Below, one piece after another: positions 10,087-35,027 of a DNA stretch of 64,000 nucleotides. Below the pieces are notes generated by a model. It saw only the letters and a program-made list of their open reading frames with translations, did no database searches and was not told where the DNA came from. Numbering within the stretch: the stretch's first letter is position 1; every line of letters begins with the position of its first letter. This stretch comes from a virus (taxonomy: Duplodnaviria > Heunggongvirae > Uroviricota > Caudoviricetes), in the IMG/VR virus record IMGVR_UViG_3300050011_000047, positions 14,132 through 78,131 of that record. One strand, written 5' to 3'. The position numbers and the translations under genes are program-made.

Positions 10087-10089
10087 GTC

Positions 10090-10674: not shown

Positions 10675-10740
10675 CTAACCCCTTAGCGCCACGCGGCGCA
10701 CACGACGGAGGCACAGCCATTTTGGCACAGCCCGATGAGA

Positions 10741-14353: not shown

Positions 14354-14355
14354 GT

Positions 14356-15297: not shown

Positions 15298-15300
15298 CGC

Positions 15301-16482: not shown

Positions 16483-19016
16483 TGGCGAAGCATCTCAAGC
16501 GCGAGACAGTACACACCCAACTCGGGGAAGGCGCGAAGGCGCAGAAGCGGCTTGAGCACCGTATCGACGGCGATTGGATTTACGTCGGCACGTACCCCAC
16601 CGATCCGAATACGAACCCGGACTCGCCTCCGTTCGAGAACGGGTGGAAGAACACGGACTCCGGCGTGCTGCCGATGCGCTTCCGTTGGCTGCTCTCCGGC
16701 GACATTGATATTGAATGGGACGTGACGAACGACATCCTGACCGGCGGTGCGGAGATTGGCACCGTGGTCTTCACGTTGCCCGTCGGCTACCGGCCCGACT
16801 TCGTGACCCCGCTCGTCGGCTCCTCGACGCTGCTCCTCATCCAACTTCTCGTCGCGCACCCGGACGGTACGGTCACGTTCGGTGGCGGCGGTTCGACCGG
16901 CCCCACAGGTGTCCCCGGTGCGACCGGCGGCACGGGGCCTCCGGGTACGACCGGCCCGAGCGGCGGAACAGGTGGGACGGGCGGTACCGGCGGAGTAGGC
17001 GCGAGCGGCACGAGCGGCGCGAGCGGGGCAGCCGGAGAGACGGGTGCGACCGGCCCCGCAGGAGGCCCCACAGGGCCGACCGGGCCTACTGGCCCCGCAG
17101 GAGGCCCGACTGGCCCCTCAGGGCCTACCGGCCCCACAGGGCCGACCGGCGCGACGGGCGGCTTGGGCTCGACCAACATCATCTTCAACGAGGTTCCCGC
17201 AGGCACCATCGACGGCTCGAACGACACGTTCACGTTGGCGAACGCTCCCGATCCTGCCGGACATCTCGCGCTCTACAAGAACGGGCTCCTCATGCAGCCC
17301 GGCGGTGTTGACTACACACTCACTAGCGATACCATCGTGTTCGCGACGGCGCAGATTCCGCTGACCGGAGAAGTGCTCGAAGCGATCTATCAGTACGGTG
17401 CAGGCCCCGCAGGTGCTACCGGCCCCGTAGGCGCAACTGGCGCGGGCGGAACTGGCACGACCGGCGGCACAGGTGGAACCGGAGGCACGGGCGGTGTTGG
17501 TGCAACCGGCGCGAGCGGTACCTTCGACTACTACACTGCCAACTTCGAGGGCGAGGAAGCCGTCACGTCTACGTCGTATGCGACGTACACAGGGGCTCCA
17601 TCACTGACCGGACTTGACGACGGCGATTGGTTCGTCATTTGGGGATGCGGCGGTAAAGGTGACGACAACGCGAACGGATCGGAACTCCGACTCGCGGTGC
17701 AAATCAACGGCGGCGGCGAGACGAACTACGTCGAGTCACAGGAGCAGTTGTACTACACCGGCATCGCGCGGCACGAGAAGGTCACACTCTCCGCAGGCGC
17801 AGGTGCCAACACTCTCGCGCTCGTTGCACTGACGACCATCGGCGGGCACACGAGCAAGGTGCGTGAGTCATGGATCGCAGCGTTCCGTGGCGGCGGCGTC
17901 GGCGGTACAGGAGGCACAGGCGGCACCGGCCCCTCAGGCGGGCCGACGGGCGCTACCGGGCCGACTGGCCCGACTGGCCCCTCGGGCGGGCCTACCGGCC
18001 CGACGGGAGCCACCGGCCCGACGGGAGCCACTGGCGCTATCGGTGTGCGCGGCGTCGGCGCGATTGACGTGCAGGTGTTTACGACTGCGACTGCGGGCGC
18101 AACTGGCGCGGGCGCGACATGGACGGCAGCAGCGGGCACGACGTGGGCCGAGGTCTTCCTCATCGGAGGCGGCGGAGGCGGTGGCGGCGGCGCAGGCGGT
18201 GCGAACGGCGGCAGCGGCAACGGCGGCGGTGGCGGCGGTGGCGGCGGCGAAGACGAGCAGATGTTTCGCATCTCCGACATCGGGACTTCGATCACGGTCA
18301 AGGTTGGCGCGGGCGGCGCATCCGGTGCGGCTCAGACGACGGCGAACACGACCGGCAACCCCGGTACAGCAGGAACCGAATCAAGTTTCGGCTCGCTCCT
18401 CAAGGCGGGCGGCGGCGGGCATGGGGCAGGTGGCGTAATCTTTGGTGCAACCGGCCAAGCACCCGCAGGTGGTGGCGGCGGCGCGGGCTTGTTGCTTACA
18501 ACGAACGATGCGACTGTATCGAGCACGGGCGGCGGCGCAGCATTCACGGACTACAAGGGCGGTAACGCAGGCACCCCCGGTGTGCACGGCGGCGGCGGCG
18601 GCGGGCTCGGGACTGACGACTCCCATGCGAGCCCCGGAGACGGCGGCGGCTCTCGGTATGGCGGCGGCGGAGGCGGCGGCGGCGGTGTGGGTACGAACAA
18701 CACGGCGGGCTCGGGCGGGGGCGGTGGCTTGGAGACGGGCGGCGGCGGCTCTAACGGCGGTATCCCTCCCCTCAACGGGACGCCTCCGGCGGGCAATGTC
18801 GGCGGCTCCGTCGGCCTACGCGGTGCGGGCGGTGGCGGTGGCGCGGGTGCTCGGCATAACGACGGCATCGCGACGGCAGGCGCGGTGGGCGGAGCCGGAG
18901 CCAACTACGGCGGCGGCGGTGGTGGCGGTGGCGGCGGCGGCGCGGGTGGCGGCGGCGGTCATGGTGGTGCGGGCGGCGCAGGTGCCGATGGCATCGTCGT
19001 GGTCGTGTCCTACTAG
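16482..19016 (+). CDS. collagen-like glycine-rich minor tail/fibre protein
   Basis: Long [26 protein letters not shown] Gly-X-Y arrays (~16900-17160, 17400-17520, 17900-18050). Poly-Gly tract [28 protein letters not shown] (~18160-18250). Gly-rich C-terminus. Confidence 0.6.
16900..17170 (+). repeat. nucleotide triplet-repeat array encoding collagen-like Gly-Pro-Thr repeats
   Basis: ggccccaca gggccgacc gggcctact ggccccgca... Periodic 9-nt units inside the fibre gene. Confidence 0.5.
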
Positions 19017-19033
19017 ATTGCTACGCTTACGCG

Positions 19034-20158
19034 ATGCGCCTGCATCTTGTCTCGCTCCCACACACTGAAACGACCTCGGAGTACATGACCTGCGCCTACA
19101 CGCAGAAGGTGGTCAAGTTCTCGAAGATGATGGTCGAACAGGGGCACGAGGTCTTCCTCTACGCGGGCACGCGCAACGAAGCCATCTGCTCGGAGCACAT
19201 CGAGGTCATCACCGAGGAGGAGCGGCTCGGGTGGTACGGCAAGTGGGACACGAACAAACCACCGGACGTGGATTGGTCACCCGATCAACTTCCATGGGGC
19301 GTCATGGCTGCACGCACTGTTCGCTCGATCAAGAAGCGCCGTGAACCGGGCGACATTCTCTGTATGGTCGCAGGTTGGTCGCAGCAGGCTATTTCCAAGG
19401 CGCTCCCGCAGTTGCTTCCTCTTGAGTGGGCTGTCGGCTACGAGGGCATCCACCACCAATACCGCGTGTTCGAGTCGTATGCGTGGATGCACCACGTCTA
19501 CGGACTCACCGGCAACAAGGGATGGGACTACAACACAATCGCCTATGACACGGTGATCCCCAACTTCTTCGACCCCGTGGACTTCCACACCGCGCCGGAC
19601 AAGGACGACTACCTCCTGTTCATCGGCAGGCTTGTTCGACGCAAGGGGCCAGACGCAGCCGCACGCATCGCTGCGCTCACAGGACGCAAACTCATCGTGG
19701 CCGGGCCGGGTGCGAAGGCGCTCATGCCGGGGCGGATCATTGCCGAGGATGTCGTCATCGAGGGCGATGTTGAGTACGTGGGTGCAGTAGGCGCGGACGA
19801 ACGTGCCGAACTCATGTCCCGCGCGGCAGCGTGCATTGTGCCGACGCTGTACGTCGAACCGTTCGGCGGCGTGGCGGTCGAGGCGATGATGTGCGGCACG
19901 CCCGTCGTCGCGACTGATTGGGGCGCGTTCCCGGAGACGGTGCAGACGGGCATCTCGGGCTACCGCTTCCGCACGCTGCGCGAGGGCGCACGCGCAGTCG
20001 AGAAGGCAGTCCTCCTCGATACACAGGCCGTGTCGGACTACGCCCATCGGCGGTACAGCATCGACGCCGTAGGCCCGATGTTCTCGGAGCACTTCGAGCG
20101 CCTTCAAGAACTGTGGGACGAAGGCGGGTGGTTCGCATCGCGGTCTTTGACGGACTGA
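19034..20158 (+). CDS. glycosyltransferase family 1 (GT4-like) embedded among tail-fibre genes
   Basis: ...FIGRLVRRKGPD...LIVAGPG...EPFGGVAVEAMMCGTPVVATDWGAFPETVQTGISGYRF is a GT4 C-terminal signature. Confidence 0.6.
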   Translation: MRLHLVSLPHTETTSEYMTCAYTQKVVKFSKMMVEQGHEVFLYAGTRNEAICSEHIEVITEEERLGWYGKWDTNKPPDVDWSPDQLPWGVMAARTVRSIKKRREPGDILCMVAGWSQQAISKALPQLLPLEWAVGYEGIHHQYRVFESYAWMHHVYGLTGNKGWDYNTIAYDTVIPNFFDPVDFHTAPDKDDYLLFIGRLVRRKGPDAAARIAALTGRKLIVAGPGAKALMPGRIIAEDVVIEGDVEYVGAVGADERAELMSRAAACIVPTLYVEPFGGVAVEAMMCGTPVVATDWGAFPETVQTGISGYRFRTLREGARAVEKAVLLDTQAVSDYAHRRYSIDAVGPMFSEHFERLQELWDEGGWFASRSLTD

Positions 20159-21624
20159 TTGATTGGTGGGCATTCGGTGACGCTGCCGACGTGCTCGCCG
20201 CTGCACCGGACAACGGAGGATTCCCCGGATCGGATGCGGTGTTCTCCGATAACATCGCTCGCTTCGGCCTGACCCCACACGACGGGCTCTACACGAACGG
20301 CGGGTTCGGGTACCAAGGCGATCAAATCATCGGTATCAATGATGTCGAGCCCGGAGCGCCGTGGGCCTGCCGGTACGACAAGAAGGCGCTCGTGCAGAAT
20401 CTTGCACCAACTGGCCCTGCGTGGGACTCCGCAATACACTACGTCTTTGGCGATCTTGTGACCTACCTCAGTATCGTCTATCGTTGCATCGCAGCGAACA
20501 CAAACGTTGTACCAACGAACGCGGCCTACTGGCGCAGGATGCCGAGCGCCGGAAGCATCGACCCCGCCTCAGGTTGGGGCGGATTCTCCGGCCTCGTTGA
20601 TACGACGACGCCGACGGAGTTCTCGTTCAACATTTGGGCGAAGCCTACACCGAACGGCTACTTCATATCGCGCTCGGGTGCATTGATGTTGACGTACCTC
20701 TGCGGTGATGTGCAAGCAACTCCGGGCTCGGAGCGCGGATGGGCGATCACTGCCAACTACACCGGCACACCGCTCGGTTTCAACCCCAATAGTGGGTTCT
20801 TCCAACTGCGCTCCAAGAGTGGTGCGACGATCATGCCGAACTTGAGTCTCGGCTCCTTTCGCTATCTCGGTGATGGTTCGACAGATTGGGTGATGCTGAC
20901 CATCACGTATGACAGTACGACGGTCAAGTGCTATCAGTCATTCACAGTCGCGGGCTTCGGCTTCGTCACCACGCTCACGGACTCGTTGGTGACGGACTTC
21001 CATATCAACTCGCAGATTTGCTTCGGAGCACGGAACAACACCGGGCCTGACGACGGCTTGTTCTCCTCGCCATTCAACGGCGCGTTCGATGAGGCGCTCA
21101 TGTGGAATCGCGCACTCACTGCCGATGAGGTCAACGCGATCCCTACGGCGTGCAACGGGAGCACGAAAGGTAAGGCCCGCTTCACCGCAGTGCAGCCCGA
21201 AACACACAAGTTGTTCACGCACGCGAAGGTGATGCGCGGGGCGCTCGGTACGACCGTCGCGTGGGATGTCGCGGGGCTCTACACCGAGCCCGGCGAGCCG
21301 GTGGGCAGCGCGGTCACGGGTGGCCTGTTCCAAACCGTGTGGTTCAAGTGGACGGCCCCGGCCTCCGGCCCGATCACGTTCATCACGGCGGACTCCTCCC
21401 CCGGCGATGTCTACTCGCAGTCCCCCGGCGAGGCATCGAAACTGTGGAGCACCCTCACCGTGTGGACGGGCACTTCGCTCGGGGGCCTCACCGAAATCGT
21501 CTCCGTGGATGACTCTGCCGTCCACCCGGCGACCTTCACGGCGGTGGCCGGGACGGAGTATCTGATTCAGATCGGAACGGGCAAGACCGGCGAGAACGGC
21601 AAGGCATCTCTCGCATGGGGCTAA
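20128..21624 (+). CDS. LamG/concanavalin-like lectin-fold minor tail protein
   Basis: Ser/Thr/Gly-rich beta-rich sequence typical of phage LamG-like minor tail proteins (inference). Start GTG 20128 is inferred and overlaps the GT 3' end. Confidence 0.4.
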   Translation: MVRIAVFDGLIDWWAFGDAADVLAAAPDNGGFPGSDAVFSDNIARFGLTPHDGLYTNGGFGYQGDQIIGINDVEPGAPWACRYDKKALVQNLAPTGPAWDSAIHYVFGDLVTYLSIVYRCIAANTNVVPTNAAYWRRMPSAGSIDPASGWGGFSGLVDTTTPTEFSFNIWAKPTPNGYFISRSGALMLTYLCGDVQATPGSERGWAITANYTGTPLGFNPNSGFFQLRSKSGATIMPNLSLGSFRYLGDGSTDWVMLTITYDSTTVKCYQSFTVAGFGFVTTLTDSLVTDFHINSQICFGARNNTGPDDGLFSSPFNGAFDEALMWNRALTADEVNAIPTACNGSTKGKARFTAVQPETHKLFTHAKVMRGALGTTVAWDVAGLYTEPGEPVGSAVTGGLFQTVWFKWTAPASGPITFITADSSPGDVYSQSPGEASKLWSTLTVWTGTSLGGLTEIVSVDDSAVHPATFTAVAGTEYLIQIGTGKTGENGKASLAWG

Positions 21625-21709
21625 ATCAGCCCGCCCGGCACGTCCTGTAAGCCCCTCTAGCCCTCATAGCGCCGACGCGGGCGCTCACACCCGCGTGGAT
21701 GCTCCGGGC

Positions 21710-21976
21710 TTAGGAGGGCTCCTGTGGCCTCGCAGCGATTCCGACGATCAGGCCGTTCGGCCCGTCCGCGATGCCCTCGACCACGACGTATCGGCTCACG
21801 CCGTCCTCACGCACGGCGAGCACGTCCCCGGCGGAGATGCGCGAGCCCGTGAGCGGCTGCTCGGCCTCCGGCGGAATGAACCTCAGGTTGTGAAGGGCGA
21901 TCATACGCAGGCTCCCCGAGATGCTCCACACGCCCCAGGCGAGGAAGAACAGGAGGGCGAAGAACGCAGTAGTCAT
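21710..21976 (-). CDS. small membrane protein (single N-terminal TM helix)
   Basis: MTTAFFALLFFLAWGVWSISG... followed by a soluble ~60-aa domain. Opposite strand, between the LamG gene and portal gene. Confidence 0.4.
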   Translation of the reverse strand: MTTAFFALLFFLAWGVWSISGSLRMIALHNLRFIPPEAEQPLTGSRISAGDVLAVREDGVSRYVVVEGIADGPNGLIVGIAARPQEPS

Positions 21977-22022
21977 GTCGTGAAGACTAGCACGTCGCGA
22001 TATAGGAAAAGGCGACGGCAGG

Positions 22023-22037
22023 TATACTCGTAGGGTG
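22023..22037 (+). promoter_or_regulatory. leaderless promoter: -10 TATACT, 6 nt, then GTG start of the portal gene
   Basis: ggTATACTcgtaggGTGgac has the same spacing and the same second codon (GAC) as the GATACT-N6-ATGGAC elements at 5676 and 30955. Confidence 0.35.
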
Positions 22038-23756
22038 GACGCACCCGATCCTAAGAAGGTACGCGCAGCCGTCGAAAAGGCCAAGGAGGGCTCCGACGGC
22101 AAGGTGCTCAAGGTACTCTACCTCGACGCGCAGGGTGAGCCCGCAGGCGATTGGGCCTCGACGCAGTTGCCCGAGAATCCGTGGGAGACTGTGCAGGCCA
22201 CCACGCAGTTGATCGAGCCCCCGTTCCCTATGGGGCAGTTGACCTTCCTCGCGGAGATGCACCCGGTGCATTCATCGGCGCTCGAACAGAAGGCAGCGGA
22301 CGTGTGCGGCAAGGGATGGGAATGGATCGCGGATGATCCCGATGTAGCAGACGAAGACCTCCGTGACGAGATGGAGGACTGGTTCCAGTCGCTTGCACCG
22401 GACGAGTTCGACATGCGCGAACTCGTCAACACCGCGTGGCTCGATGAGGAGACGACCGGGTGGGGACTGCTCGAATGCGCACGTGATCCGCAGGGAGTCG
22501 TGCAGCGGCTCTACCACGTGCCCGCGCACACGGTCAAGACGCACAAGAACGGGTTTGCTCTCTGCCAGGTGCGCGACTCGCGCAAGATGTGGTTCCGTAG
22601 GTGGGGCTCCACTGACATCGCCGGGAAGCCGGTCGAGGTCAACATGCGCAACGGCTCAATCACGAACGTGCCGGAGGATCAGCGCGCGAACGACCTTCTC
22701 GTCATCAAGCGCCCGTCGCGGCGATCCACGTGGTACGGCATCCCCGGCTACATCTCCGCAATCGGATGGATCACGCTCGCGCTCGCAGCACGCGATGACA
22801 ACCTGTACTTCTTCTCCAACCGCCGCGAGCCCCGTTGGGCGATCATCCTCACCGGTATGGCCGAGGATACCGAGATTGAGGAAGATCTCCGGCGCGCGTT
22901 CACCGTGGACATGAAGCAGCCGTACCGAAATGTCATGGTACCGGTCGCAGGCAAGGACGCGAAGGTCACCTTCCAAGAGTTGTCGTCCACGGCGAAGGAC
23001 GGCTCGTTCGGGAACCTCGGGGATCGCGCCGACAAGGCCATCATGGTCGCACACCGCGTGCCCGCCGAGCGTCTTGCGAACTCCCAGGTTGGCGCTCTCG
23101 GCGGCAACGTCGCGTCCGAGTCGAACCGCGTCTACAAGGAAGGCGTCGTCGCTCCCGCGCAGGAGGTTCTCAACTCGCGCCTCAATCGCTTCATCGCGGT
23201 CGAGTTTGCCAAGTACAAGAATCAGGAGTACAAGAAGGGCGACAAGTCGATGTGGCTTCTCAAGATGGATGACCTCGACATCCGCTCCGACCGCGAGGAC
23301 ATGGATCAGGCGCTCATCCTGTTCCACGGCGATATGATTACGCTCCGGGAAGCGCGTCATCGGCTCGGCCTCGGCCCACTCATGAAGCCGAAGCCGGTCG
23401 CACAGAAGAACCCGGATGGTACGCCGAAGACGAACCCTGACCCGATCACGGGTGAGCCGACGCAGGTCTTCGGCCCGCCGATCCCCGGCGTAGACGACGA
23501 GGAGAACCCGGCAGTGGACATCAACGGCAACCCCGTACCGCCTGAGGAAGTCGAGTCCGAGTTCAATGACATGTTGTTCTCGCAGTTGCCGGGCGCGAGC
23601 GGTCAGGCCGGGCTCCCCGGTGGCGCTCCGCCTACCGGCACCGGCAAGTTGACGCCGGAAGTGAACAAGGCGCTCGCGTCTGACGTGCGTGAACTGCTCC
23701 GTTCATCCTACGCGACACATGATCGTATCGCGCGGATGGCCGGAGATGACGGCTAG
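22035..23756 (+). CDS. portal protein
   Basis: 573 aa with an acidic C-terminus, immediately upstream of and overlapping a MuF-like gene (canonical portal-MuF pairing). Assignment is by size and context. Confidence 0.55.
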   Translation: MDAPDPKKVRAAVEKAKEGSDGKVLKVLYLDAQGEPAGDWASTQLPENPWETVQATTQLIEPPFPMGQLTFLAEMHPVHSSALEQKAADVCGKGWEWIADDPDVADEDLRDEMEDWFQSLAPDEFDMRELVNTAWLDEETTGWGLLECARDPQGVVQRLYHVPAHTVKTHKNGFALCQVRDSRKMWFRRWGSTDIAGKPVEVNMRNGSITNVPEDQRANDLLVIKRPSRRSTWYGIPGYISAIGWITLALAARDDNLYFFSNRREPRWAIILTGMAEDTEIEEDLRRAFTVDMKQPYRNVMVPVAGKDAKVTFQELSSTAKDGSFGNLGDRADKAIMVAHRVPAERLANSQVGALGGNVASESNRVYKEGVVAPAQEVLNSRLNRFIAVEFAKYKNQEYKKGDKSMWLLKMDDLDIRSDREDMDQALILFHGDMITLREARHRLGLGPLMKPKPVAQKNPDGTPKTNPDPITGEPTQVFGPPIPGVDDEENPAVDINGNPVPPEEVESEFNDMLFSQLPGASGQAGLPGGAPPTGTGKLTPEVNKALASDVRELLRSSYATHDRIARMAGDDG

Positions 23757-26700
23757 CGCACTAGACCTCTCCGCCGAGCATCTCCGTCAGGTCGAGGAGT
23801 TGTACCTTCGCATCCGCGAGGCGGGGATCGAAGCCGACGCAGGCAGTGATGATCTTCTCGCACTCTCGCGCGAGCACAAGCGGCGCGTGAAGCATCTGTT
23901 CCTCGCGGTCGAGAAGATGCGGCGCAGCCCGCACCGGCAGGCCGTCCATGAGAAGTCGCACGCGCAGCGGCTCGCGCTTGAGCAGGTGTGGACGCAGCGG
24001 CTCCGGCTCCTCTCCGACCATCTCGTCAACGGCTTCGACATCGACGGGGCCTACGAGGTAGCCCGGCGGGCGTGGGTCACCCCGGCGGACGAGCCCCACG
24101 ACGGCATCTACGTGGACGAGCATGCGCCGGGGCGGCTCAAGAAGGCTCTCACGCCGCCGAAGAAGTCTGACCTCTCGGTGGTCGAGCACTGGCCCGGCAA
24201 GCGCGGGACGGCGGCTCGACTTGCGCTCAAGAGGGCGGCGACTACCGAGGGCGTCGAGGCGCTCGTGCTCCGCGACTCGACCGGCAACCCGATTGCCGTC
24301 GCAGCGGTCAAGGCGAGCCCCGGCGACCTGCACGTGGAGTTCCTTGCATCCGAGCCCGGCAAGGGCGCACAGATGATGCAGGAGTTGGCGAAGGTGGCGA
24401 AGAAGACCGGCTCCGGGCTCTCCCTGTTCTCTGTCCCCGAGGCGGCGCAGTTCTACGATGGGATCGGGATGGCGGCAGGCGACCGCGCCGGGCAGTACAT
24501 CATGACCCCTGCGCAGACGGCGGCATTCGCGGTGACCGGCGGCATTCTTCCTCCGGCGGGCTCGAAGGCGGCGGGTATGACCAAAACCGAGCAGGCAGGT
24601 GTGCAGCAGTTGATGCTCAACGCGATCCAGTCGAGCGGGACACCTGGCAGCGCCGACGTGAAGCGGGCACTCTCATCGGTCGAGAATCAGGCAGCATGGG
24701 AGCGCGGCGCGGCGACGCAGTACCTCGGGCTCGCGGTGCAGACGGCGGAGCAGGCCGGGCAGGTGGCGCTCGATCATCTCGGACTCCACAAGACGTTCGA
24801 GTTCGCGAACCCGCAGACGATGGTGGGCGACGCGACGGCGGTGCGCGGCTCGAAGGTGATTCAGTCCATGTACGGGGCGCACGTCGATGCGCTTACGAAC
24901 ATCATCACGGACGCCACTAACCCGGCAGCGCCGCAAACCATCGCGCAAGTCAAGGCGTCGATCCGCGAGCAGTGGCCGAAGTTGCAGACGTATCAGGTCG
25001 AGCGGATCGCACGCACGGAGACGGCGGCGGTGTGGATGTCCACGAGCGCGAACGCCTACGCGGCGAACGGCATCTCGCAGTTCGAGACTATCGTCGCCAC
25101 CGGCCCAAGCATCGGCGTCGAGAGCGAAGACCCGTGCGACGAGTGTGTGGCGGCGGCAGAGGACGTGCACTCGCTCGATGACGACCTCCCGCCGTGGCAC
25201 CCAAATGCGGTGCTTGGAGGTTCTACGTTTCTATCTTACGGTGAACCGCTCGAAGCGGTTCGTGCGCGCTACCGTGGCCTTTCCGTACTCATCCGTGCGG
25301 GGGAGCACGTGCTTACCATCGGGCCTAACCACCCGGTGATGACCCGGCGCGGGATGGTGCCTGCAAATCAGATTCGCGAAGGTGACGAGTTGGTCTACGA
25401 CAGACGCGCTAATCGGCAGGAAGGCGCGATACGCGCTATCACATCGGACATCGAAGACGTGCCACTCGTCGAGGATGCGTTCACGGCGCTCCTGTCTACG
25501 GGCACGTATGCGACCGTTCCCGTGACCCCCGATGATCTCCACTGCGACGGGGTATTCTGCGAGGGCGAAGTCGATGTTGTAAGGCCCGACGGCAACCTGC
25601 TGGCGGTACTCGATCCCCGAGGCATCAAGGAGATGCGCGAAGTCGCGTTCGAGGCTTCCAGCGCCGAGTACCCTCAACTCTCTCGTTTTCGCGCGAGCCT
25701 CACGCCGAGAGAGCGGGTCGATGTTTCCACGTCGAGCCTCGTGGCAGGCCATGAATCGCTTAGGTTTATTCGAGTCATTCATGTGGACTTTGTGGACTTC
25801 GAGGGATGGGCGTTCGATTTCTCGGTACAGGGTGGGATGTATCTCAGTAATGGCTTTATGGTATCAAACTGTCGATGCGAGGCCGTGCCGGTACTGGAGG
25901 ACACGGACGGCACGCCATGGCTTCCGCCGGACGAACCGTGGACGGGCGGCGGCGACGGCTCCGGTGACATGGCACCGGGCACATTGTTCGAGCCGATGCC
26001 TCCACCGGAGCAACTCGCGATGGAGTTTGCGCCGGGCACGGTTGCGCCGTCGGCGGACATCTTGCTCAAAGGCTCGCTTGCGCAGCAGACGGTGCAGGAA
26101 GAACTCGGCAACATCGGGCGCGTGCATCAAATCCCCGATCACGTTGATGTGCCTTCGGTCAAGGGCGCGGTACACAACTCCTACTCACCCGATGAGAACC
26201 GCATCTTCCTCAATCCTCGTCCCGCCGAAGGCGAGTATCTCAAGGGCACGAGCGTTGTTCACGAGTACGGGCACTTCGTGCAAGAGCAGCGTGTCGTCTC
26301 AATGAACGATCAGATTGCCGTGTCCGATATGGCCGAGGCCACGCCGGAGTGGGCGTCGTTCGAGCGGTACGACCAACAACCGAACGAGTTGTTCTCCCGC
26401 GTGTATCAGCAGTGGATCGCAACCAAGAACGCGGACGAAGTGAAGTTGGCGTTCTACAAGGCGCAAGGCAAGTTTTGGTCACCCGAGTCGTTCAAGCCTC
26501 TCGGCGCGAAGATGGATGAGGTCTTCGCTCCGCTCATGAAGCCGAAGTTCCCGGACGGCTCACCCAAACTCCCGGAGAAGACGCCCGACGCAGCGCCCGC
26601 ACCGAAGGCGGAGGAGTTCCCCGCACCACTCGTGATCGACGCTGCGACGTGGACTGAGAAGAAGGTAATCGAGACACTCGCGCCGTTCGAGGGACGCACC

Positions 26701-29700
26701 GTTCGCCTGACGGGCCAGGGGTTCAAGGGGCACGAGTACACGATGGAGGGCGAGTACAAGTTCGACAAGGAATCAGGCTACCCGCTCGTTGGGGATCGCA
26801 CCATCGGCACCGGCACGGACATGGTGCACGTCGAAGTGCAAGACTCCGGCGGCGCGTGGCACACGATTGCGGAGAAGCCGTTGTCCGAGCGTGCGCCGGT
26901 CGAGCCCGAGCCGACGTTCTCGAAGCCCGACGCACTCCCCACGTATTCGGGCAAGACCGTGGAACTGTCCGAGCGGTACAAACTCAAGGTGCCGAACAAG
27001 GAGTTGAAGGCGTCGGTCACGACGGCGCTCGATGACATCGCGAGCCGGATTAAACTCCCGGAGGAAGCACGCCCTGTGGACGTTACGCCGGGCTCCGGCA
27101 TGTCGTCAAACTTCACGCCCGCAGGTGTGCAGCGCGGTGTTGTCAAGGGTGCACGCATTCGTATCTCCACGAATCGCGGTACGCAATCGCATTTCGACCG
27201 CATCGACTCGACCTATCATGAATACGGGCACTACCTCGATTGGACGGGCCTTGGCGGCGCGGATGGTTGGGCGGGCACGCGGTACGGCTCCGAGTACGCA
27301 GCCGACATGAAACCGCTCATGCAGGCGTTCTTCGACTCGCCCGAGTACAAGCAGTGGCGCGACATCTACTCCGGTAAGTTCAAGCCCGGTGAGGGTGTCT
27401 ACGCGCCCAAGAGTCATGCTCGCTACATGAAGTCGAACGTCGAGTTGTTCGCTCGCGGCTTCGCGCAGTACATGTCCGAGGTCACTGGCAACGCGGAGTA
27501 CCGCGCGTTCGTGGCCGATCACGTCCCGCTTGAGAAGGGCGGGTGGTATTGGACGCCGGAGAACTTCGCGCCGATCAAGGACGAGTTCGACAGGTTGTTT
27601 GAGAAGCGAGGTCTACTCAAGGAGACGCCACCCGCGCCCGAGCCGTTGCCCGCACCTACACCCGAGCCCCTCGCGCCGGAGACGCCCGCGTTCGCGCCCA
27701 AGGAGCCGCTCACGCAAGATCAGCAGTTGGCCGTCAACGACTACACCGGCAGAGGCGGCGAGGGGCAGGAGGGCTACCTACGCACGAACCGTTGGCTCCG
27801 TGGGCTCAAGCAGACACACGGCGACCCGCTCGCGACGATCAAGAACCGCGTCGAGCATCTCGATGCAGCCATCGAGAGCGCGGCCCCGCTCGCGACGCCG
27901 ACGACCGTGTGGCGCGGTATCGGTAACTCTGAGTTCTATGGTGGCGGCGGCACGCTCAAGGTCGGTCAAGTGATCGAAGACCCGGCCTACCTCTCGACCT
28001 CTTCGACGCCGAAACTTCCGACCTCGTGGGCGGGCACTCACGGCGACCTGTGGGAAATCAAACTGCCGAAGGGGATGAAGGGCCTCGACGTGAACGCGGC
28101 CCTCAAGGACACACCCTACGGCCCACACGGGCTCGATCCGGCCACGACCAAGGAGGGCGAGATTATCCTCCCACGCAACACGCGCCTCGTGGTGGACGCG
28201 ATCAAGGAGCGTGTCACGACATACCCGAACGGGAACCGCGTGGTCGCACACGACGTTACAGCGCACGTGGAGAGCATCCCCGAGTTGCGCCCGCCGACGC
28301 CGGTCAAGGAGAACATCCCCGATCCGAACCCGGCAACTCCGCCACCGCCCCCGCCTCCGCCCCCGCCTCCGCCACCGGCACCCACTCCGGTGCATCCGAC
28401 GACTCCCGAGGCAACACCGGCCTCCACGACGAACAACCCGCCCCTCCCCGAGTGGCACGACTTCACGACGCCCTCCGGGCTCGAAGCCGGGCTCGCACAC
28501 TACGAGGGCAAGCAGGTGCGTCTGACGTTCACGTTCCCGAGCGGAGCAACTAAGAAGTTCACCGGGCTCGTTGAGCGCAACTCACGCGGGCAGATGATGG
28601 TGGATCGTTCGACGTTCCGCGAGTCAGCCGTCCCGAACATCACGGGCGTCGAGGTCAAGGTCGGCAGTCGCTTCAAGCCGTGGAAGGAATACGAGCGTAT
28701 GACGCCCGAGCAGCAGAATCCCGCGCCTCCGAAGCAGCGCACGGCATCCGGTTCGTCAGAGAAGCCGGTACCCGAGGGCGGTTACACGTTCCCGGACAAC
28801 GTACCGAGCGGTGTCCTCGGTGACGTACCGGCAACGCCGATCTTCGAGAACGTCGCGCATGCACAGGCGTTCGCAGAGAGGTACCTCGCACGTGAGGTCT
28901 ACCTCGGAAAGAACCCGGAACTCAAGGGCGTGCAAGAGGCGCTCGATGCGATGGCGCAAGTGCTGCGCCCGTTCGACTTGAAGATCGAGCGGTTGCAGGT
29001 CGAGCATGATCCGCGCTCCTCGGGGCTCGCGTACTACTCCTCGAATGCCACGAAGAAGATGCTCATTGACGGCAAGAAGCAGTATTGGTCAGGCGAACTC
29101 ATCCGCGCGCAGGCGCAGTTGTTCTCGAAGTCCAAGGCGGCGGCGGTGGGTGACAACCAAGCAGTGTTCGAGGCGAACAAGGCGAAGGAGATTCGCACGC
29201 GCGAGGACTGGATCGCACAGGCGGAAGAACGCCACACGTCACCCGAGAAGATCGCGCAGTACCGTCGTGAGATTGCCAACTTGGAAGCGGCGAAGCGGTG
29301 GTACATCGCGGCGGTTGATGGCGGTGCTGACGCCACCAAGGCGTTCATGTCGCACGAGGCTGCGCACATGCTCTCGCGTAACTTCGGACATGAAATCGCC
29401 GGAGTCAGCATCACGGAGGCGGGGCTCGCGCCGATCTTCACCACGCGACTTGAGTTGCACGGCGTCACGCAGGAGGAGCGTTGGTCAGTCTCGCAATACG
29501 GCGCGAGCGGCGACAAGGCGCGACAGGCTCAAAACTCGGAGTTGTTCGCAGAGGTTACGGCGGCGAAGATCAGCGGGCACTATGACCTCGTGCCCCTCAA
29601 CATCCGCGAGGCATACGAGGAGACGCTCGGCTACATCACGCAGGCTGACATCGAGGCGAAGGCAGCGGCGAACAAGGCCCGAGATGCGGCGGTCGAGGCG

Positions 29701-29757
29701 AAGCGCGTACAGAAGGCCGGGCTCGAATCGGTGCGCAAGCGGGTTGGGCTACACTAG
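23746..29757 (+). CDS. giant MuF-like virion protein: MuF domain interrupted by an intein, two HEYGH zincin-like motifs, an ADP-ribosyltransferase-like domain, a poly-Pro linker and a C-terminal domain
   Basis: ATG 23746 after CCGGAG. Translation has ERIARTETAAVW...DLPPWHPN[221 aa]CRCE (Mu F signature PPxHPNCRC split); TSVVHEYGHF and STYHEYGHY; ...TTVWRGIGN...AYLSTSS...KEGEIILPR (R/STS/ExE); [14 protein letters not shown]. Confidence 0.7.
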   Translation: MTASALDLSAEHLRQVEELYLRIREAGIEADAGSDDLLALSREHKRRVKHLFLAVEKMRRSPHRQAVHEKSHAQRLALEQVWTQRLRLLSDHLVNGFDIDGAYEVARRAWVTPADEPHDGIYVDEHAPGRLKKALTPPKKSDLSVVEHWPGKRGTAARLALKRAATTEGVEALVLRDSTGNPIAVAAVKASPGDLHVEFLASEPGKGAQMMQELAKVAKKTGSGLSLFSVPEAAQFYDGIGMAAGDRAGQYIMTPAQTAAFAVTGGILPPAGSKAAGMTKTEQAGVQQLMLNAIQSSGTPGSADVKRALSSVENQAAWERGAATQYLGLAVQTAEQAGQVALDHLGLHKTFEFANPQTMVGDATAVRGSKVIQSMYGAHVDALTNIITDATNPAAPQTIAQVKASIREQWPKLQTYQVERIARTETAAVWMSTSANAYAANGISQFETIVATGPSIGVESEDPCDECVAAAEDVHSLDDDLPPWHPNAVLGGSTFLSYGEPLEAVRARYRGLSVLIRAGEHVLTIGPNHPVMTRRGMVPANQIREGDELVYDRRANRQEGAIRAITSDIEDVPLVEDAFTALLSTGTYATVPVTPDDLHCDGVFCEGEVDVVRPDGNLLAVLDPRGIKEMREVAFEASSAEYPQLSRFRASLTPRERVDVSTSSLVAGHESLRFIRVIHVDFVDFEGWAFDFSVQGGMYLSNGFMVSNCRCEAVPVLEDTDGTPWLPPDEPWTGGGDGSGDMAPGTLFEPMPPPEQLAMEFAPGTVAPSADILLKGSLAQQTVQEELGNIGRVHQIPDHVDVPSVKGAVHNSYSPDENRIFLNPRPAEGEYLKGTSVVHEYGHFVQEQRVVSMNDQIAVSDMAEATPEWASFERYDQQPNELFSRVYQQWIATKNADEVKLAFYKAQGKFWSPESFKPLGAKMDEVFAPLMKPKFPDGSPKLPEKTPDAAPAPKAEEFPAPLVIDAATWTEKKVIETLAPFEGRTVRLTGQGFKGHEYTMEGEYKFDKESGYPLVGDRTIGTGTDMVHVEVQDSGGAWHTIAEKPLSERAPVEPEPTFSKPDALPTYSGKTVELSERYKLKVPNKELKASVTTALDDIASRIKLPEEARPVDVTPGSGMSSNFTPAGVQRGVVKGARIRISTNRGTQSHFDRIDSTYHEYGHYLDWTGLGGADGWAGTRYGSEYAADMKPLMQAFFDSPEYKQWRDIYSGKFKPGEGVYAPKSHARYMKSNVELFARGFAQYMSEVTGNAEYRAFVADHVPLEKGGWYWTPENFAPIKDEFDRLFEKRGLLKETPPAPEPLPAPTPEPLAPETPAFAPKEPLTQDQQLAVNDYTGRGGEGQEGYLRTNRWLRGLKQTHGDPLATIKNRVEHLDAAIESAAPLATPTTVWRGIGNSEFYGGGGTLKVGQVIEDPAYLSTSSTPKLPTSWAGTHGDLWEIKLPKGMKGLDVNAALKDTPYGPHGLDPATTKEGEIILPRNTRLVVDAIKERVTTYPNGNRVVAHDVTAHVESIPELRPPTPVKENIPDPNPATPPPPPPPPPPPPPAPTPVHPTTPEATPASTTNNPPLPEWHDFTTPSGLEAGLAHYEGKQVRLTFTFPSGATKKFTGLVERNSRGQMMVDRSTFRESAVPNITGVEVKVGSRFKPWKEYERMTPEQQNPAPPKQRTASGSSEKPVPEGGYTFPDNVPSGVLGDVPATPIFENVAHAQAFAERYLAREVYLGKNPELKGVQEALDAMAQVLRPFDLKIERLQVEHDPRSSGLAYYSSNATKKMLIDGKKQYWSGELIRAQAQLFSKSKAAAVGDNQAVFEANKAKEIRTREDWIAQAEERHTSPEKIAQYRREIANLEAAKRWYIAAVDGGADATKAFMSHEAAHMLSRNFGHEIAGVSITEAGLAPIFTTRLELHGVTQEERWSVSQYGASGDKARQAQNSELFAEVTAAKISGHYDLVPLNIREAYEETLGYITQADIEAKAAANKARDAAVEAKRVQKAGLESVRKRVGLH
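25207..25869 (+). other. putative mini-intein (221 aa) inserted between N and C of the MuF HPN/CRC motif
   Basis: Begins AVLGGSTFLSYGE (Ala1). Block B-like LTIGPNHPV (TxxH). C-terminal ...GMYLSNGFMVSN followed by Cys +1. Local GC is lower than the flanking extein. Confidence 0.5.
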
Positions 29758-29761
29758 CGCC

Positions 29762-29980
29762 ATGCCAGGAATCTCCGACCTCTGCCTGCGCTGCGCCCGC
29801 TTCCGGGGCGACGGCACGTGCGCGGCGTTCCCGGACGGCATCCCCGAGGAAGTCTTCGGCGGCGAGCATGACCACCACGAGCCCTTCGAGGGCGACGGCG
29901 GGCTCACGTTCACGCCGACGACGACGCCGGATGCTGACCGACTTCTCGCGTACCCGCCCGACGGCTTCCCCACAGACTGA
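29762..29980 (+). CDS. hypothetical Cys-containing small protein
   Basis: MPGISDLCLRCARFRGDGTCAAFPDG... Last plus-strand gene before the strand switch. Confidence 0.35.
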   Translation: MPGISDLCLRCARFRGDGTCAAFPDGIPEEVFGGEHDHHEPFEGDGGLTFTPTTTPDADRLLAYPPDGFPTD

Positions 29981-31520: not shown

Positions 31521-32465
31521 TTACGGGTATGTAGAACTCCCCGGCGTGGATGGGACATTGAGGAACGGGATAACGCCTGTGCTAGAGCCGACAAGCGTGC
31601 TCGGCAGGATGCCGTTCCACCTGACGTAGTACTGCCATGACAGGAGTAGAGCCGTCACGGATGCGGCGACTAGTTTGTTCGCCTTGGCCTGCGCCGTTGC
31701 TTTGATGAGCACCGAGCGAGCCGTCGCCTCAGCGTTGATGATAGTCTGCGCCTTGAGAGCGCGCTTGGCGGCGATCAGGTTCTCTTGCTGTAACGCCTGT
31801 TGATGCGCGATGATCTTGGCCTTGACGGCTGCGACGAACGCCGGATCGAAGATCGCGTCCTCGATGTTGACGTAATCGACCACGATGCCGTAGCCCTTGA
31901 GTTGATCGGTCAACTGACCCTGAATCGTCAGTGCGAGCGCGTCCCGCTCCTTGGCGAAGTCGATGGCCTGAATCTGACCAACCGCCGCCTTGGTGCGCTG
32001 GTAGAGCGCAGGCTGAATGACCGTGCTCGCGTACTGCAAGCCGATGCGCTGGTACAGGAACGGGGCCTTGGCCGGATCAACGTGGTAGTTGACCGAGGCC
32101 ACGACGGTGATTTCCTGCAAGTCTGCGGACTGCGCGAACACCTTGTCCGAGTACAACTTCTGCGTTCGCACGGACATCACCGTGAGATGCTGTAGCCACG
32201 GCAGAAGAAATGAGACACCCTCGCCACGCGGCGTCTGTTGGACGCCGCCGTTCCACTGGAAGATCACGCCCCTGTATCCTGCGGGGACGACGCCGATGGC
32301 AGGCACGATCAGGAAGGACGCGAGCACGGACACCGCTGCCCTCCGTAGTGCGCGCTTAACGACGGGTGCATCCTTGCGATGCCGGAATGCCTGCACCAAG
32401 AAGAAGACGGCGACGCCTCCGAACATGGCCCAAATCACCGGCTGTATGAGAGCCGCGTAAGTCAT
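31521..32465 (-). CDS. SPFH/band-7 (stomatin/prohibitin/HflK/C-like) membrane protein
   Basis: N-terminal TM, then ...GYRGVIFQWNGGV...LTVMSVRTQ...EITVVASVNYHV... (SPFH core) and a coiled-coil AEATARSVLIKATAQAKANKL. Strong AAGGAGG SD. Confidence 0.65.
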   Translation of the reverse strand: MTYAALIQPVIWAMFGGVAVFFLVQAFRHRKDAPVVKRALRRAAVSVLASFLIVPAIGVVPAGYRGVIFQWNGGVQQTPRGEGVSFLLPWLQHLTVMSVRTQKLYSDKVFAQSADLQEITVVASVNYHVDPAKAPFLYQRIGLQYASTVIQPALYQRTKAAVGQIQAIDFAKERDALALTIQGQLTDQLKGYGIVVDYVNIEDAIFDPAFVAAVKAKIIAHQQALQQENLIAAKRALKAQTIINAEATARSVLIKATAQAKANKLVAASVTALLLSWQYYVRWNGILPSTLVGSSTGVIPFLNVPSTPGSSTYP

Positions 32466-32477: not shown

Positions 32478-32993
32478 TTAGTTTCCATAGCGAGGAACGC
32501 TATGGGTTGGATTGTTGGTGCGAGAGTTACCACCGTGGCCTCCGGTGCGTGAGTTACCACCGCTGTTAGTGCCGGTACCGGAGAGTGCAAAAGTGTTCGG
32601 GTACGGACGCGCACGATTCCATGCGTTCGTGATGTTGCCGTCGTATGTCGGCCAATACTCGTTCGTCTGCAAGATGCCGATGCACGCAACCTTGGTGCCC
32701 TGCCATCCGTTGTCCACGACGGCCTGACAGAAGGAGCCCTGCACGACACCCATGTCCGGCTTGTCGGACATCACCTTGGCGCGCTGCACGCGGCACATCG
32801 CCGCGAGGTTTGCATCTCCCACTCCTTGCGACTTCATGAAGGAGTCGCCTGAGCAATACCCTTGGAGTTGACTATCAGCAAGCCGCACAAGATTCGCGTC
32901 GTATGGTGGGATGAAGCCGACCGGCATCGCGATATAGACGAACCCGAGGATGATCGTAAGGGCTCCTGCGAGCCCGAGTAACTTACGGCTCAT
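32478..32993 (-). CDS. membrane-anchored/secreted hypothetical protein between ftsH and the SPFH gene
   Basis: MSRKLLGLAGALTIILGFVYIAMPVGF... (TM), Cys-containing ectodomain, Gly/Asn/Ser-rich tail. ATGA overlap with the ftsH stop. Confidence 0.45.
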   Translation of the reverse strand: MSRKLLGLAGALTIILGFVYIAMPVGFIPPYDANLVRLADSQLQGYCSGDSFMKSQGVGDANLAAMCRVQRAKVMSDKPDMGVVQGSFCQAVVDNGWQGTKVACIGILQTNEYWPTYDGNITNAWNRARPYPNTFALSGTGTNSGGNSRTGGHGGNSRTNNPTHSVPRYGN

Positions 32994-34978
32994 GACTCGA
33001 AGCCCCCGAGTAGGTTGTGAATCTCGTCGCCGGTCACAGTGCCCTCATCGTACAGGAGCCGGGCGACGGCCTCGATGTCGTCCTTGTGCGCCGTGAGCAG
33101 CGTGCGGCAGGCTTCGAGCGCCTCAGCGAGAATACCCTCGGCCTGCTTCTGCACCAAGCGGTTGTCCGCAGGGTAGACGCCAATCTGAGAAGCGAGCCCG
33201 TAGCCGACCATGCGCACCGCGTCCTGTGTGGCACTTGCGGCGTCTCCGCCATGCCCGTTGGTTGTGGTACCGATAAGGAGTTGCTCGGCCACGCGGGAGG
33301 CAAGACTCACCTGAATGTCGGCAAGCAACTCGGCGCGTGTCATAAGCCAATCCTCATGCAACGGGGTCGGCGCAACCATGCCGCCCGTCTCCCCTCGGCG
33401 CTCGATGCTCGCGAACCAAATGTGCTGCCTCGTGCGGCAGAGGAGATGGAAGGCTACTGCGTGCCCGGCCTCGTGGACGGCGACGTTCCAGCGGGCTTCC
33501 TCGCGCTCGAAGGGGCCATCGGACTCCCCGAAGCGTGTCCACAGCATCGCGTGCATTAGGTCGTAGAAGCGCACAATGCCGGGGTCATCCCGTTCGTCCC
33601 GGAAACTAACGAGCAACGCCTCGTTCACGATGTCCTGAATCTCGGCTCCGGTGCCTCGCGCGTGGTTGCGCGCGGCCCATTCGATGTTCGCAGGGGTGAG
33701 GTCATTCGTGACCTTACGAAGGTAGCCCTCATACGTCCGGCGGCGACCATCGACCTTCGGGAAGGTGACGTGAATCTTGCGCCCGAACCGCCCGGCGCGG
33801 AGCAGCGCGGGGTCGAGGCGATCCATCATGTTCGTTGCGCCGATCATGAGATACTTGTACTCATACGGAGCCATAGGCTTGAACCCGGCAAAGACGAGAA
33901 GACGATTCAACGGGCCACGCGGCTCCTCCATCCCGTCCATCGCGGAGAGGAACGCTTCGAGGGTACCCATGCCGCCGCCACCGCCGCCGACCACGATGCT
34001 GCGCGTATCGTCAGACGCGGCAGGACGACTAAACGGCACGCATCCGGGCGCTCGACATTCTGCCGGAGCGGCCCCGAGTACATCCCCGCCACGTGAGCCG
34101 AGAGAGTCAATCTCGTCAATGAACACGATGACGCCACCGTAGCGCCGAGCCAACTTGCGAATCTCGCGGAACAGAGTCCACACCTTGAGCAAGTTGATGC
34201 CGACGAACGTCGCTTGGAACGCGCCCGGAGGCACGAGGATGAGCGGCTTCGAGGAGTAGTTCGCCGCTGCCTTCGCGAGATACGTCTTTCCGGTACCCGG
34301 CGGCCCGTAGAGAAGTAGGCCCTTCGGCATGTACCCGCCAGCCGCCTCGATGTGGTCGGAGTCTTCAAGCAGTTTCACCTGTTCCATAACCTTCTGCTTG
34401 GCGTCGTCCTGACCCCACACGTCATCGAACGTGACATTGACTGTGCCGGGCATGACGACCTTGTATGAGCCGACCTTGACCATCGCATAGAACATGATCC
34501 CGAGTTGGAATAATGTCAGCGCAACCATCACGGCGAACTGTATGAACATCGGGAGGTTCTCGACCGCGAGACGGGGCGCGAGGATGACGCACTGTATCGC
34601 GCTTGAGCAGCGCGTGGTGAGTGCGTTGACCATCATGCCAAAGACGTAGAGGGCTAGCAGCCAAGTTGCCACACGCTGCACCTTCAACCACGATTGCTTC
34701 GAGACTACAGCCGCACGCAATCGGGCTCGCTTTTCAACCCTTGCGGTCTTCGCTACCCAACTCTCATCGACTTCCAAGCGCGCGTGGTGGAACTCGCGCA
34801 GCACGAGGAAGGCGAGAGCGAAGATGGCTAGGCGTGCAGGGAACGAAATGGAGAACGGGAACGGTGATGCCCACTCGCTCGCGGCCACATACGCGATGAT
34901 GATGACCGGAAGTTTGACCCGCTCGAAGAACGGCTTAGGTGGGCGTAGCGCTATGGGGCGCTTCTCAACTTCACTCAT
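32990..34978 (-). CDS. ftsH: FtsH-like membrane AAA+ zinc metalloprotease
   Basis: N-terminal TM segments. Walker A LLYGPPGTGKT, Walker B VIVFIDEIDS, second region of homology ATNMMDRLDPALLRAGRFGRKIHV, zinc site HEAGHAVAFH. Start ATG 34978 preferred over TTG 35014. Confidence 0.75.
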   Translation of the reverse strand: MSEVEKRPIALRPPKPFFERVKLPVIIIAYVAASEWASPFPFSISFPARLAIFALAFLVLREFHHARLEVDESWVAKTARVEKRARLRAAVVSKQSWLKVQRVATWLLALYVFGMMVNALTTRCSSAIQCVILAPRLAVENLPMFIQFAVMVALTLFQLGIMFYAMVKVGSYKVVMPGTVNVTFDDVWGQDDAKQKVMEQVKLLEDSDHIEAAGGYMPKGLLLYGPPGTGKTYLAKAAANYSSKPLILVPPGAFQATFVGINLLKVWTLFREIRKLARRYGGVIVFIDEIDSLGSRGGDVLGAAPAECRAPGCVPFSRPAASDDTRSIVVGGGGGGMGTLEAFLSAMDGMEEPRGPLNRLLVFAGFKPMAPYEYKYLMIGATNMMDRLDPALLRAGRFGRKIHVTFPKVDGRRRTYEGYLRKVTNDLTPANIEWAARNHARGTGAEIQDIVNEALLVSFRDERDDPGIVRFYDLMHAMLWTRFGESDGPFEREEARWNVAVHEAGHAVAFHLLCRTRQHIWFASIERRGETGGMVAPTPLHEDWLMTRAELLADIQVSLASRVAEQLLIGTTTNGHGGDAASATQDAVRMVGYGLASQIGVYPADNRLVQKQAEGILAEALEACRTLLTAHKDDIEAVARLLYDEGTVTGDEIHNLLGGFES

Positions 34979-35000
34979 GAGTCGCAGTGTAGCGGAAGTT

Positions 35001-35027
35001 GCGGCCCCCTGCAAGGCAAGGGGCCGC
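35001..35027. other. 8-bp GC hairpin GCGGCCCC...GGGGCCGC between the holin-like gene and ftsH
   Basis: Read directly. No U-tract follows. Confidence 0.3.

Follow-up and report, generated by a model that had tools for sequence, protein, structure and literature searches.

A probable polyvalent head protein of a phage: a giant MuF-type protein with an intein and several predicted enzymatic domains

Which role can be assigned to a protein of 2,003 residues whose gene directly follows the portal gene of a phage? The question is raised by a stretch of 64,000 nucleotides of phage DNA (IMG/VR record IMGVR_UViG_3300050011_000047, positions 14,132 to 78,131; hereafter the window), in which the open reading frame (ORF) at 23746-29757 (+) comprises 2,003 codons plus a stop codon and is free of internal stops. 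Based on our findings we suggest, with a probability of about 0.75, that this giant gene encodes a phage 'polyvalent' head protein, i.e. a MuF-type anchor that is interrupted by an intein and followed by a multi-enzyme cargo, the whole being packaged and injected. As expected of a polyvalent protein, a MuF-type module, a GNAT-like domain, three zincin-like metallopeptidase domains and an ADP-ribosyltransferase (ART) domain are united in one polypeptide that is encoded beside portal and tail genes. As each of the underlying motifs lies in a domain with significant homologues, the motifs are not chance matches.

A conserved anchor and a variable cargo

The portal gene (22035-23756, +; PF04860 with E 2.4e-11 and 43.8 bits versus a cut-off of 39.1; phrog_12, portal, 1.6e-17) lies directly upstream and overlaps the start of the giant gene by 11 nucleotides. 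The same ATG was chosen when genes were called independently on the contig of origin (Logan assembly SRR30280121_16716, 91,834 bp), and translation could alternatively start at a GTG at 23689. The GC content at third codon positions (GC3) is 0.80 across the giant gene, as in the true genes of the window, which has an overall GC content of 63%. An assembly chimera or a pseudogene is ruled out by the uniform frame, this GC3 value and homologues that are collinear over the whole length.

A search of 5.8 billion proteins yielded 25 homologues, all metagenomic and 1,143-2,876 residues long. In pairwise blastp comparisons the alignment of each of the 25 covers residues 1-488 or 300-488, breaks off and continues from residue 708; residues 1-488 and 709-740 thus constitute the part that is common to the homologues ahead of a variable cargo. 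Past residue ~740 this cargo differs from protein to protein, comprising ART, Zeta toxin, PHP, AAA_33, ATLF or LPD1 domains, and such polymorphism, as judged from the alignments, is what one would expect of effectors with a MuF anchor. The arrangement of a portal gene followed by a giant gene recurs in nine homologue loci, usually with a subsequent strand flip. One metagenomic homologue from JGI (P0002, 1,680 residues) has the same order of MuF module, zincin, zincin, ART and third zincin. Its N-terminal part is 52% identical to the window protein and the same small ORF is located downstream, but P0002 is devoid of the intein and its linkers are shorter. In isolated-phage records the exact domain string was not found by megablast or tblastn: the giant gene gave no megablast match among 50,697 phage records, and tblastn returned partial matches only, with less than 60% identity and mostly to the intein.

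The N-terminal helical region (residues 1-110; 23746-24075, +) is common in part to almost all homologues, and blastp finds residues 37-110 even in homologues that do not have residues 111-299. The anchor itself is a module of the MuF/SPP1-gp7 type, whose N-extein part (residues 301-487; 24646-25206, +) contains ERIARTE at 419 and PPWHPN at 482-487 and whose C-extein part (25870-25980, +) begins with CRC at 709-711, all three motifs having been listed in the initial annotation. Residues 708 to ~740 align directly after the PPWHPN motif of the homologues. PHROG head-morphogenesis and minor-head families match residues ~270-640 (phrog_15127, 2.8e-18; phrog_4728, 6.3e-7; phrog_115, 2.2e-5). PF04233 gives no match on the unspliced sequence; once residues 488-708 are removed in silico, its match runs over the junction and reaches the profile end (E 0.024). 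Thus, the PHROG matches, the position right after the portal gene and the in-silico splicing support the MuF-type module claimed initially, with membership assignable at the superfamily level and from gene position, not via curated thresholds. By analogy to SPP1 gp7 and Mu gpF, the module may attach a few copies to the portal or to the capsid interior, so that the protein would be packaged together with the DNA.

The intein and its antisense reading frame

Between PPWHPN and CRC the MuF module is interrupted by an intein of 221 residues, A488-N708 (25207-25869, +), with the block B residue His529, the block F residue Asp691, the terminal residues Ser707-Asn708 and Cys709 at position +1. The segment 488-708 is skipped exactly at this site by 25/25 homologues and, as all of them resume at 708, it is an insertion peculiar to this gene; its GC3 is 0.65 as compared to 0.86 and 0.80 in the flanks. 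Six isolated phages have homologous inserts at this very position of MuF, i.e. Rhodococcus phage REQ3, Cronobacter ES2, Pseudomonas vB_Pae phages, Salmonella Jerseyvirus, Pantoea AH01 and Vibrio H2, the REQ3 insert (L001, 2176-3951) being 44% identical to the window intein. A profile of the seven inserts matches at least 20 solved inteins in the PDB through blocks B and F/G, with M. jannaschii KlbA ranking first (1.7e-11), followed by Pho RadA (1.2e-7), PI-PkoII and the RecA mini-intein (1.3e-5), and Asn708|Cys709 is invariant in the insert alignment. The gap in the homologues and the matches to solved inteins bear out the intein that had been proposed for the MuF protein, and the insert would have to be spliced out in order to restore the conserved PPWHPN|CRC motif.

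Canonical features characterize the proteobacterial copies, which begin with C-L-L-G-D-T, have T-x-x-H in block B and end in [HS]-N|C, and a normal Cys1 is found in the Salmonella, Pantoea, Cronobacter, Pseudomonas and Vibrio phages. The window and REQ3 inteins have Ala1, Gly for the block B Thr and a Ser-Asn|Cys end, with the block B His (His529) and the block F Asp (Asp691) being kept. With the block registers read by eye from the alignment of inserts, the intein can be compared to the three known classes. Class 1 inteins have Cys, Ser or Thr at position 1, whereas Ala488 occupies this position here, as does Ala in REQ3. Class 3 inteins are defined by the WCT triplet, i.e. Trp at block B position 12, Cys at block F position 4 and Thr at block G position 5 (PMC2807308), and class 3 is ruled out since this triplet is absent, the corresponding residues being Val, Asp691 and Val. 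The features that remain, i.e. no N-terminal nucleophile (Ala488), no WCT triplet, Cys709 at +1 and Asp691 in block F, are those of class 2, and the M. jannaschii KlbA intein agrees with the window intein in having Ala1, Cys+1 and an Asp in block F and in being devoid of a WCT triplet. Because of Ala1 and the missing triplet, splicing is predicted to follow, in all likelihood, the KlbA (class 2) mechanism, in which Cys709 would attack the upstream junction directly. The KlbA inteins of the class 2 description are archaeal, and the Ala1 KlbA intein does splice (Tori et al. 2009, PMC2807308). If our assignment is true, bacteriophages contain a class of inteins that has so far been described from archaeal KlbA proteins. 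The REQ3 minor-capsid intein resembles the window intein in its MuF site, its Ala1, its Ser-Asn|Cys end and an antisense ORF; a 2025 preprint files this 225-residue intein under class 3 (Gosselin et al., 10.1101/2025.01.02.630785), yet the defining WCT triplet is absent from both REQ3 and the window intein.

An insert of this kind might also be a degenerate or cleavage-only Hint domain that splits MuF from the cargo or simply stays in place. Ala1, Gly for the block B Thr and Ser for the penultimate His would fit such a scenario, as would the failure of the isolated intein sequence to match any Pfam family at E up to 10. However, Ala1 and Ser-Asn|Cys are kept in the 44% identical REQ3 intein, pointing to selection instead of decay, and none of the block B His, the block F Asp, the terminal Asn and Cys+1 has been lost. 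Moreover, the closest relative in the PDB is an Ala1 intein that does splice (PMC2807308), and the insert disrupts the best conserved motif of MuF, whose restoration would require splicing. Taken together, a degenerate domain appears improbable, and we favour a splicing intein of the KlbA type.

Inside the intein, the opposite strand carries an ORF of 183 residues (25231-25782, -) with weak matches to Vsr-like and DUF559-like families (PF18741, 9e-4; PF04480, 2.6e-3). On its own an antisense ORF of this size is unremarkable, as other antisense frames of 185-303 codons are open in the same high-GC gene. The same frame, however, is open over 181-290 codons in 7/7 MuF inteins, including those of lower-GC phages, and the products are homologous across the seven inteins, sharing an invariant Y-N-x-D ... 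A-V-E signature. PF18741 is matched by 5/7 products, the longer products add helix-turn-helix domains, and a profile of the antisense products gives weak PDB matches to 3hrl and to Vsr (1cw0). Since the frame is homologous and open in seven inteins and matches Vsr-like families, we accept it as a gene that probably encodes a putative Vsr-like homing endonuclease of the intein. Antisense VSR-like homing endonucleases are known for actinophage minor-capsid inteins (10.1101/2025.01.02.630785).

The predicted enzymatic cargo

Among the cargo domains the ART is the one with the clearest identity. It spans residues 1319-1500 (27700-28245, +), is of the R-S-E type and contains Arg1390, Ser1417-Thr-Ser1419 and Glu1470-Gly-Glu1472. 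PF03496 matches residues 1319-1490 with E 2.7e-14 and 53.4 bits, well above its cut-off of 23.4, and a profile of 19 homologous ART domains finds VIP2 in the PDB with E 6.5e-32 plus 49 further ART chains, among them CdtA (9e-27), Certhrax, iota Ia, C3larvin, ExoT/S, Vis, C3, C2I, SpvB, Tre1-like and HopU1 chains. The segments tvyRG, flSTSl and ESEll of the profile align with TVYRW, MSTSL and EKEIL of VIP2, and R1390 and E1472 are invariant in the 19 domains. The C3/VIP2/Alt-type ART with an R/STS/ExE layout that the initial annotation had recognized therefore stands, profile similarity to the ART fold and catalytic motifs in register with those of VIP2 both being present. The closest solved relatives, VIP2, CdtA, iota Ia, Certhrax and C3 (E 6.5e-32 to 1e-13), share the Y-x-x-x-N..LR helix as well as R, STS and ExE with the ART described here; they are, however, secreted toxins that act on eukaryotic actin or Rho, whereas the target here is presumably bacterial.

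ExE instead of QxE in this ART clade points to an arginine acceptor, and arginine may thus be the residue that is modified here. T4 Alt, which is packaged in the head and injected, is likewise an ART of the R-S-E type, but it is a single-domain internal head protein with a capsid-targeting sequence and not a MuF fusion, and the similarity in sequence is weak (match to phrog_802, 'Alt-like', 2.9e-4). Once ejected together with the DNA upon infection, the ART might, like T4 Alt, mono-ADP-ribosylate host proteins at arginine residues.

The ART is flanked by zincin-like domains. Domain 1 (residues 780-935; 26083-26550, +) contains His794, H839-E-Y-G-H843 and Glu881; domain 2 (residues 1080-1300; 26983-27645, +) contains H1158-E-Y-G-H1162, Asp1165 and Glu1233 and has an LPD1 tail (26 bits versus a cut-off of 27). 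Two HEYGH motifs had been annotated, and both are present, at 839 and 1158, although 319 residues apart instead of ~330. Their suggested zincin character agrees with the zincin fold that we found in predicted models and by structure comparison, and the two domains are homologous to each other according to jackhmmer. A third HExxH motif, HEAAH at 1870, had escaped the initial annotation and is part of a divergent zincin-like domain (residues ~1700-1960; 28843-29625, +) with H1870-E-A-A-H1874, Glu1932 and Glu1936. In the family alignments H839/E840/H843 with E881, H1158/E1159/H1162 with E1233, and H1870/E1871/H1874 with E1932 are invariant, and in the predicted models the catalytic residues sit on helices.

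In an exhaustive HMMER search the HEYGH family profile found 3,153 representative clusters, 1,669 of them at E <= 1e-10. Among the best 132 matches the HEYGH-type domain is located at the extreme C-terminus in 106, two to four copies are present in 25, and HExxH is kept in 130, nearly always as HExGH. A word-indexed protein search with residues 741-1300 was empty though homologues exist, probably as it was swamped by Pro-rich words. The family members that we sampled belong to Phage_min_cap2 or Phage_Mu_F and have LPD1 as a tail; LPD1 is therefore the C-terminal part of the HEYGH domain, and MuF plus a HEYGH-type domain is a very common unit.

The module at ~1700-1960 belongs to a separate family, which is found near the C-terminus of eight homologues and is characterized by an invariant HExxH, an S-x-Y-G motif and E-L-W-A-E. 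Its predicted model has a pLDDT of 84.9, and hhalign links the N-terminal helix-strand of the module with the HEYGH family (91.9% probability, E 7e-7). We consider it very probable that this module is a third, divergent zincin with a helical insert. It is followed by a C-terminal helix, modelled as such, and a tail that is conserved in the family alignment and ends in RKRVGLH (29626-29754, +). This last motif (29734-29754, residues 1997-2003) is kept in the homologues with the third zincin and could be a targeting or cleavage signal.

A GNAT-like insert, which was absent from the initial annotation, precedes the MuF module (residues 111-300 with a core at ~170-250; 24076-24645, +) and shows G205-x-G207 and QFYDGIG at 235. 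In a profile search against the PDB the top 12 matches are all N-acetyltransferases (best match 8osp, 1.1e-5, ~60-80 residues aligned), and the N-terminal 300 residues have no Pfam match at E up to 10. The segment is an optional insert in the closer homologues and a movable module at other positions in others. Thus, residues 111-300 are a probable, putative acetyltransferase, and the GNAT-like domain may acylate a further target.

Behind the anchor the cargo, i.e. two homologous zincins, the VIP2/C3/Alt-type ART and a third, lethal-factor-like zincin, is joined by proline-rich linkers. The inter-domain linkers all contain 11-41% Pro as compared to 7.9% overall; they include PAPEPLPAPTPEPLAP and a poly-Pro peptide. 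The latter lies in a Pro-rich linker at 28258-28455 (+), and the poly-Pro stretch reported previously is present, at residue 1532, but has 13 (28339-28377) and not 14 Pro residues. It is followed by ~460 residues that are made up of a small domain and the third zincin-like module, rather than by a single C-terminal domain of ~600 residues as assumed before. This small domain (residues ~1575-1655; 28468-28710, +) is common to the homologues with the C-terminal module and matches no family, and the C-terminal 444 residues have no Pfam match at E up to 10. Another small domain (residues ~968-1060; 26647-26925, +), located between the first two zincins, is common to the homologues P0007 and P0008 and matches no family either (segment 960-1065, no Pfam match at E up to 10). 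The two share a short LAxxEGxxVRLT motif, a match of only 12 residues, and their similarity is weak; a relationship as repeats is no more than tentative.

What might three metallopeptidases do in such a protein? Anthrax lethal factor (M34), PPEP-2/3 and MtfA resemble them at the level of structure, with a sequence identity of only 10-15% and without sequence-level matches, and domain 3 differs from them by a helical insert of ~80 residues. As the closest structural neighbours are Pro-Pro endopeptidases and all linkers are Pro-rich, self-processing at the linkers is an attractive hypothesis, and we speculate that the zincins may be specific for proline. They may cut the polyprotein at its linkers, or host proteins, or both. 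Alternatively, the zincins could be assembly or maturation proteases, or inert spacers, inside the procapsid, leaving the ART as the only host-directed domain. P1 DdrB is autoprocessed before packaging and the metallopeptidase region of the N4 vRNAP is needed for encapsidation (PMC5512222); moreover, members of the HEYGH family mostly occur as the only domain C-terminal to MuF or Phage_min_cap2 in short proteins, which argues for a head-related housekeeping function, and the resemblance of the Pro-rich linkers to Pro-Pro endopeptidase substrates is compatible with maturation as well. Conservation of HExxH and the Glu in all three copies, in turn, argues against inert spacers. On balance, we regard a role confined to the procapsid as unlikely and prefer a cargo of zincins and ART that is delivered into the host cell.

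Several observations weigh against a packaged, injected multi-enzyme protein of the kind proposed here. The zincin modules are assignable at the fold or superfamily level only: none of them reaches a Pfam cut-off (Zn_peptidase_2, 15-19 bits versus 27; DUF6782, 15-18 versus 27; in domain 1 both weak matches fall on the HExxH), the HEYGH and C-terminal modules retrieve nothing meaningful from PDB sequences in single-sequence or profile searches, and domain 3 has no significant Foldseek match in the PDB, though lethal factor ranks first. Domain 1 has Gln in place of the Asp three residues past HExxH, and domain 2 does not have the strand-2 His that is conserved in the family. On the side of the anchor, TIGR01641 (18.1 bits versus a cut-off of 39.65) and, on the spliced sequence, PF04233 (15.8 bits versus 29.6) stay below their curated thresholds, and an intein with Ala1 and Ser for the penultimate His could be splicing-defective or cleavage-only. 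Finally, packaging and ejection are suggested by analogy, just as the designation 'host-targeting virion effector' used in the initial annotation follows from homology and gene position and should be read as a proposed role.

The downstream ORF, related systems and the genomic neighbourhood

Immediately 3' of the giant gene lies a Cys-rich ORF of 72 residues (29762-29980, +; CLRCARFRG..C..FPDGIP). Copies that are 52-58% identical adjoin the gene in 5/5 homologue loci that end in zincin 3, once on the opposite strand, and no copy was found in the 4/4 homologue loci with other C-termini, i.e. the small ORF and a zincin-3 C-terminus occur together in 6/6 loci, the window included; these ten loci are few, phylogenetically related and not independent. 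A function as immunity protein against the ART is ruled out since the ORF is present beside P0003, which has no ART. From this covariation, the small ORF and the last domain look like a toxin-immunity or enzyme-partner pair.

These findings allow for a different view of the whole protein, namely that it is a MuF polymorphic toxin in which zincin 3, delivered by the phage or by a lysogen, would kill or inhibit bacteria that do not have the immunity encoded by the small ORF, without any takeover of the phage's own host. Like the MuF toxins, e.g. the EFV toxin of the Enterococcus faecalis V583 prophage (MuF1 plus ART), the protein is encoded right after the portal gene, has MuF followed by toxin domains that are swapped between close homologues and is followed by a small ORF, as are 89% of the MuF toxins (PMC5576092). 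The small ORF tracks zincin 3 and not the ART, and one homologue locus has a small integrase-family gene. However, MuF toxins, of which 14% have an ART and 20% a metallopeptidase (PMC5576092), usually carry one toxin domain and are linked to temperate phages, whereas the protein described here has about five enzymatic modules and belongs to a phage with a lytic-type replication arm. A full replication module is present in the window and no integrase was found among the window proteins scanned, a scan that did not take in every ORF. In addition, no known immunity fold is present in the small ORF, covariation of this kind would be explained just as well by a chaperone or a partner in assembly, and the loci sampled are few and related. 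Thus, we consider a pure polymorphic toxin to be improbable and retain the polyvalent head protein as the favoured explanation. That three further proposals apply jointly, i.e. that a phage class 2 intein gates maturation of the head anchor, that Pro-directed, self-processing zincins free the modules after ejection, and that zincin 3 and the 72-residue ORF form a new protease toxin-inhibitor pair, also seems unlikely at present.

The hub domains of polyvalent proteins include MuF, one to five interspersed metallopeptidase copies, ART, GNAT and LPD1 (Iyer, Burroughs, Anand, de Souza and Aravind 2017, PMC5512222), with GNATs, typically beside an ART, being a known component. As here, polyvalent proteins are giant multi-domain polypeptides encoded among head and packaging genes and predicted to be packaged, co-injected multi-effectors, and the phage-type metallopeptidase described for them, with HExxH, Asp three residues later and a strand-2 His, is of the type present here (PMC5512222). 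In contrast, the ART highlighted in that study is of the H-Y-D type, whereas the one here is of the R-S-E (VIP2/Alt) type, and an intein is not mentioned there. MuF-ART fusions have been called common (Iyer 2022, PMC9503650; Jamet 2017, PMC5576092). The combination had been termed unusual in the initial annotation; this was overstated, as the hub domains are published and P0002 has the same order of MuF, metallopeptidase, metallopeptidase, ART and metallopeptidase. All components and the design principle are thus already published, and the protein is an unusually complete example. Modestly new are the intein inside such a protein, its class 2-like signature and the covarying small ORF.

The findings extend current views and overturn none. 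In condensed form the protein displays what a phage may bring into a cell, namely one anchor, an ART of the toxin type, three proteases and, probably, an acetyltransferase, and it may serve as a test case for whether polyvalent proteins really are packaged and ejected, whether the common zincin domains act in processing of the polyprotein or in an attack on the host, and what MuF-linked ARTs modify in bacteria. The Ala1 intein with its antisense endonuclease and the zincin-tracking small ORF are each amenable to small constructs.

The structural arm of the genome closes with the giant gene. Upstream of the portal gene and on the same strand (region 12110-23756) lie tail genes, including those for Dit (14356-15297) and a fibre protein (16482-19016), and genes for a glycosyltransferase and a lectin-like/carbohydrate-binding-module protein are also located ahead of the portal gene; most ORFs at 1-12000 of the window have no PHROG match. 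The portal is only 25-30% identical to its counterparts in archaeal viruses and in large Streptomyces and Rhodococcus phages. Tail genes likewise precede the portal gene in Rhodococcus phage Trina (L009), and this order is therefore a lineage trait. The phage represents an uncultured, probably actinobacterial lineage with a genome of 92 kb and without close isolated relatives.

After the giant gene the strand flips and the replication arm follows, encoding, among others, a Sak4-like ATPase, a PD-(D/E)XK nuclease, an SNF2 helicase, PolA, a DUF932 protein, a primase and Dam. This arm also contains a proteostasis set that is uncommon for a phage (31521-37123, -), consisting of an SPFH/Band-7 protein (31521-32465, -), an FtsH-like protease with AAA and M41 domains (32990-35014, -) and a proteasome-subunit-like protein (36479-37123, -). 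A proteasome-like gene is present in the locus of the homologue P0001 (L008), too.

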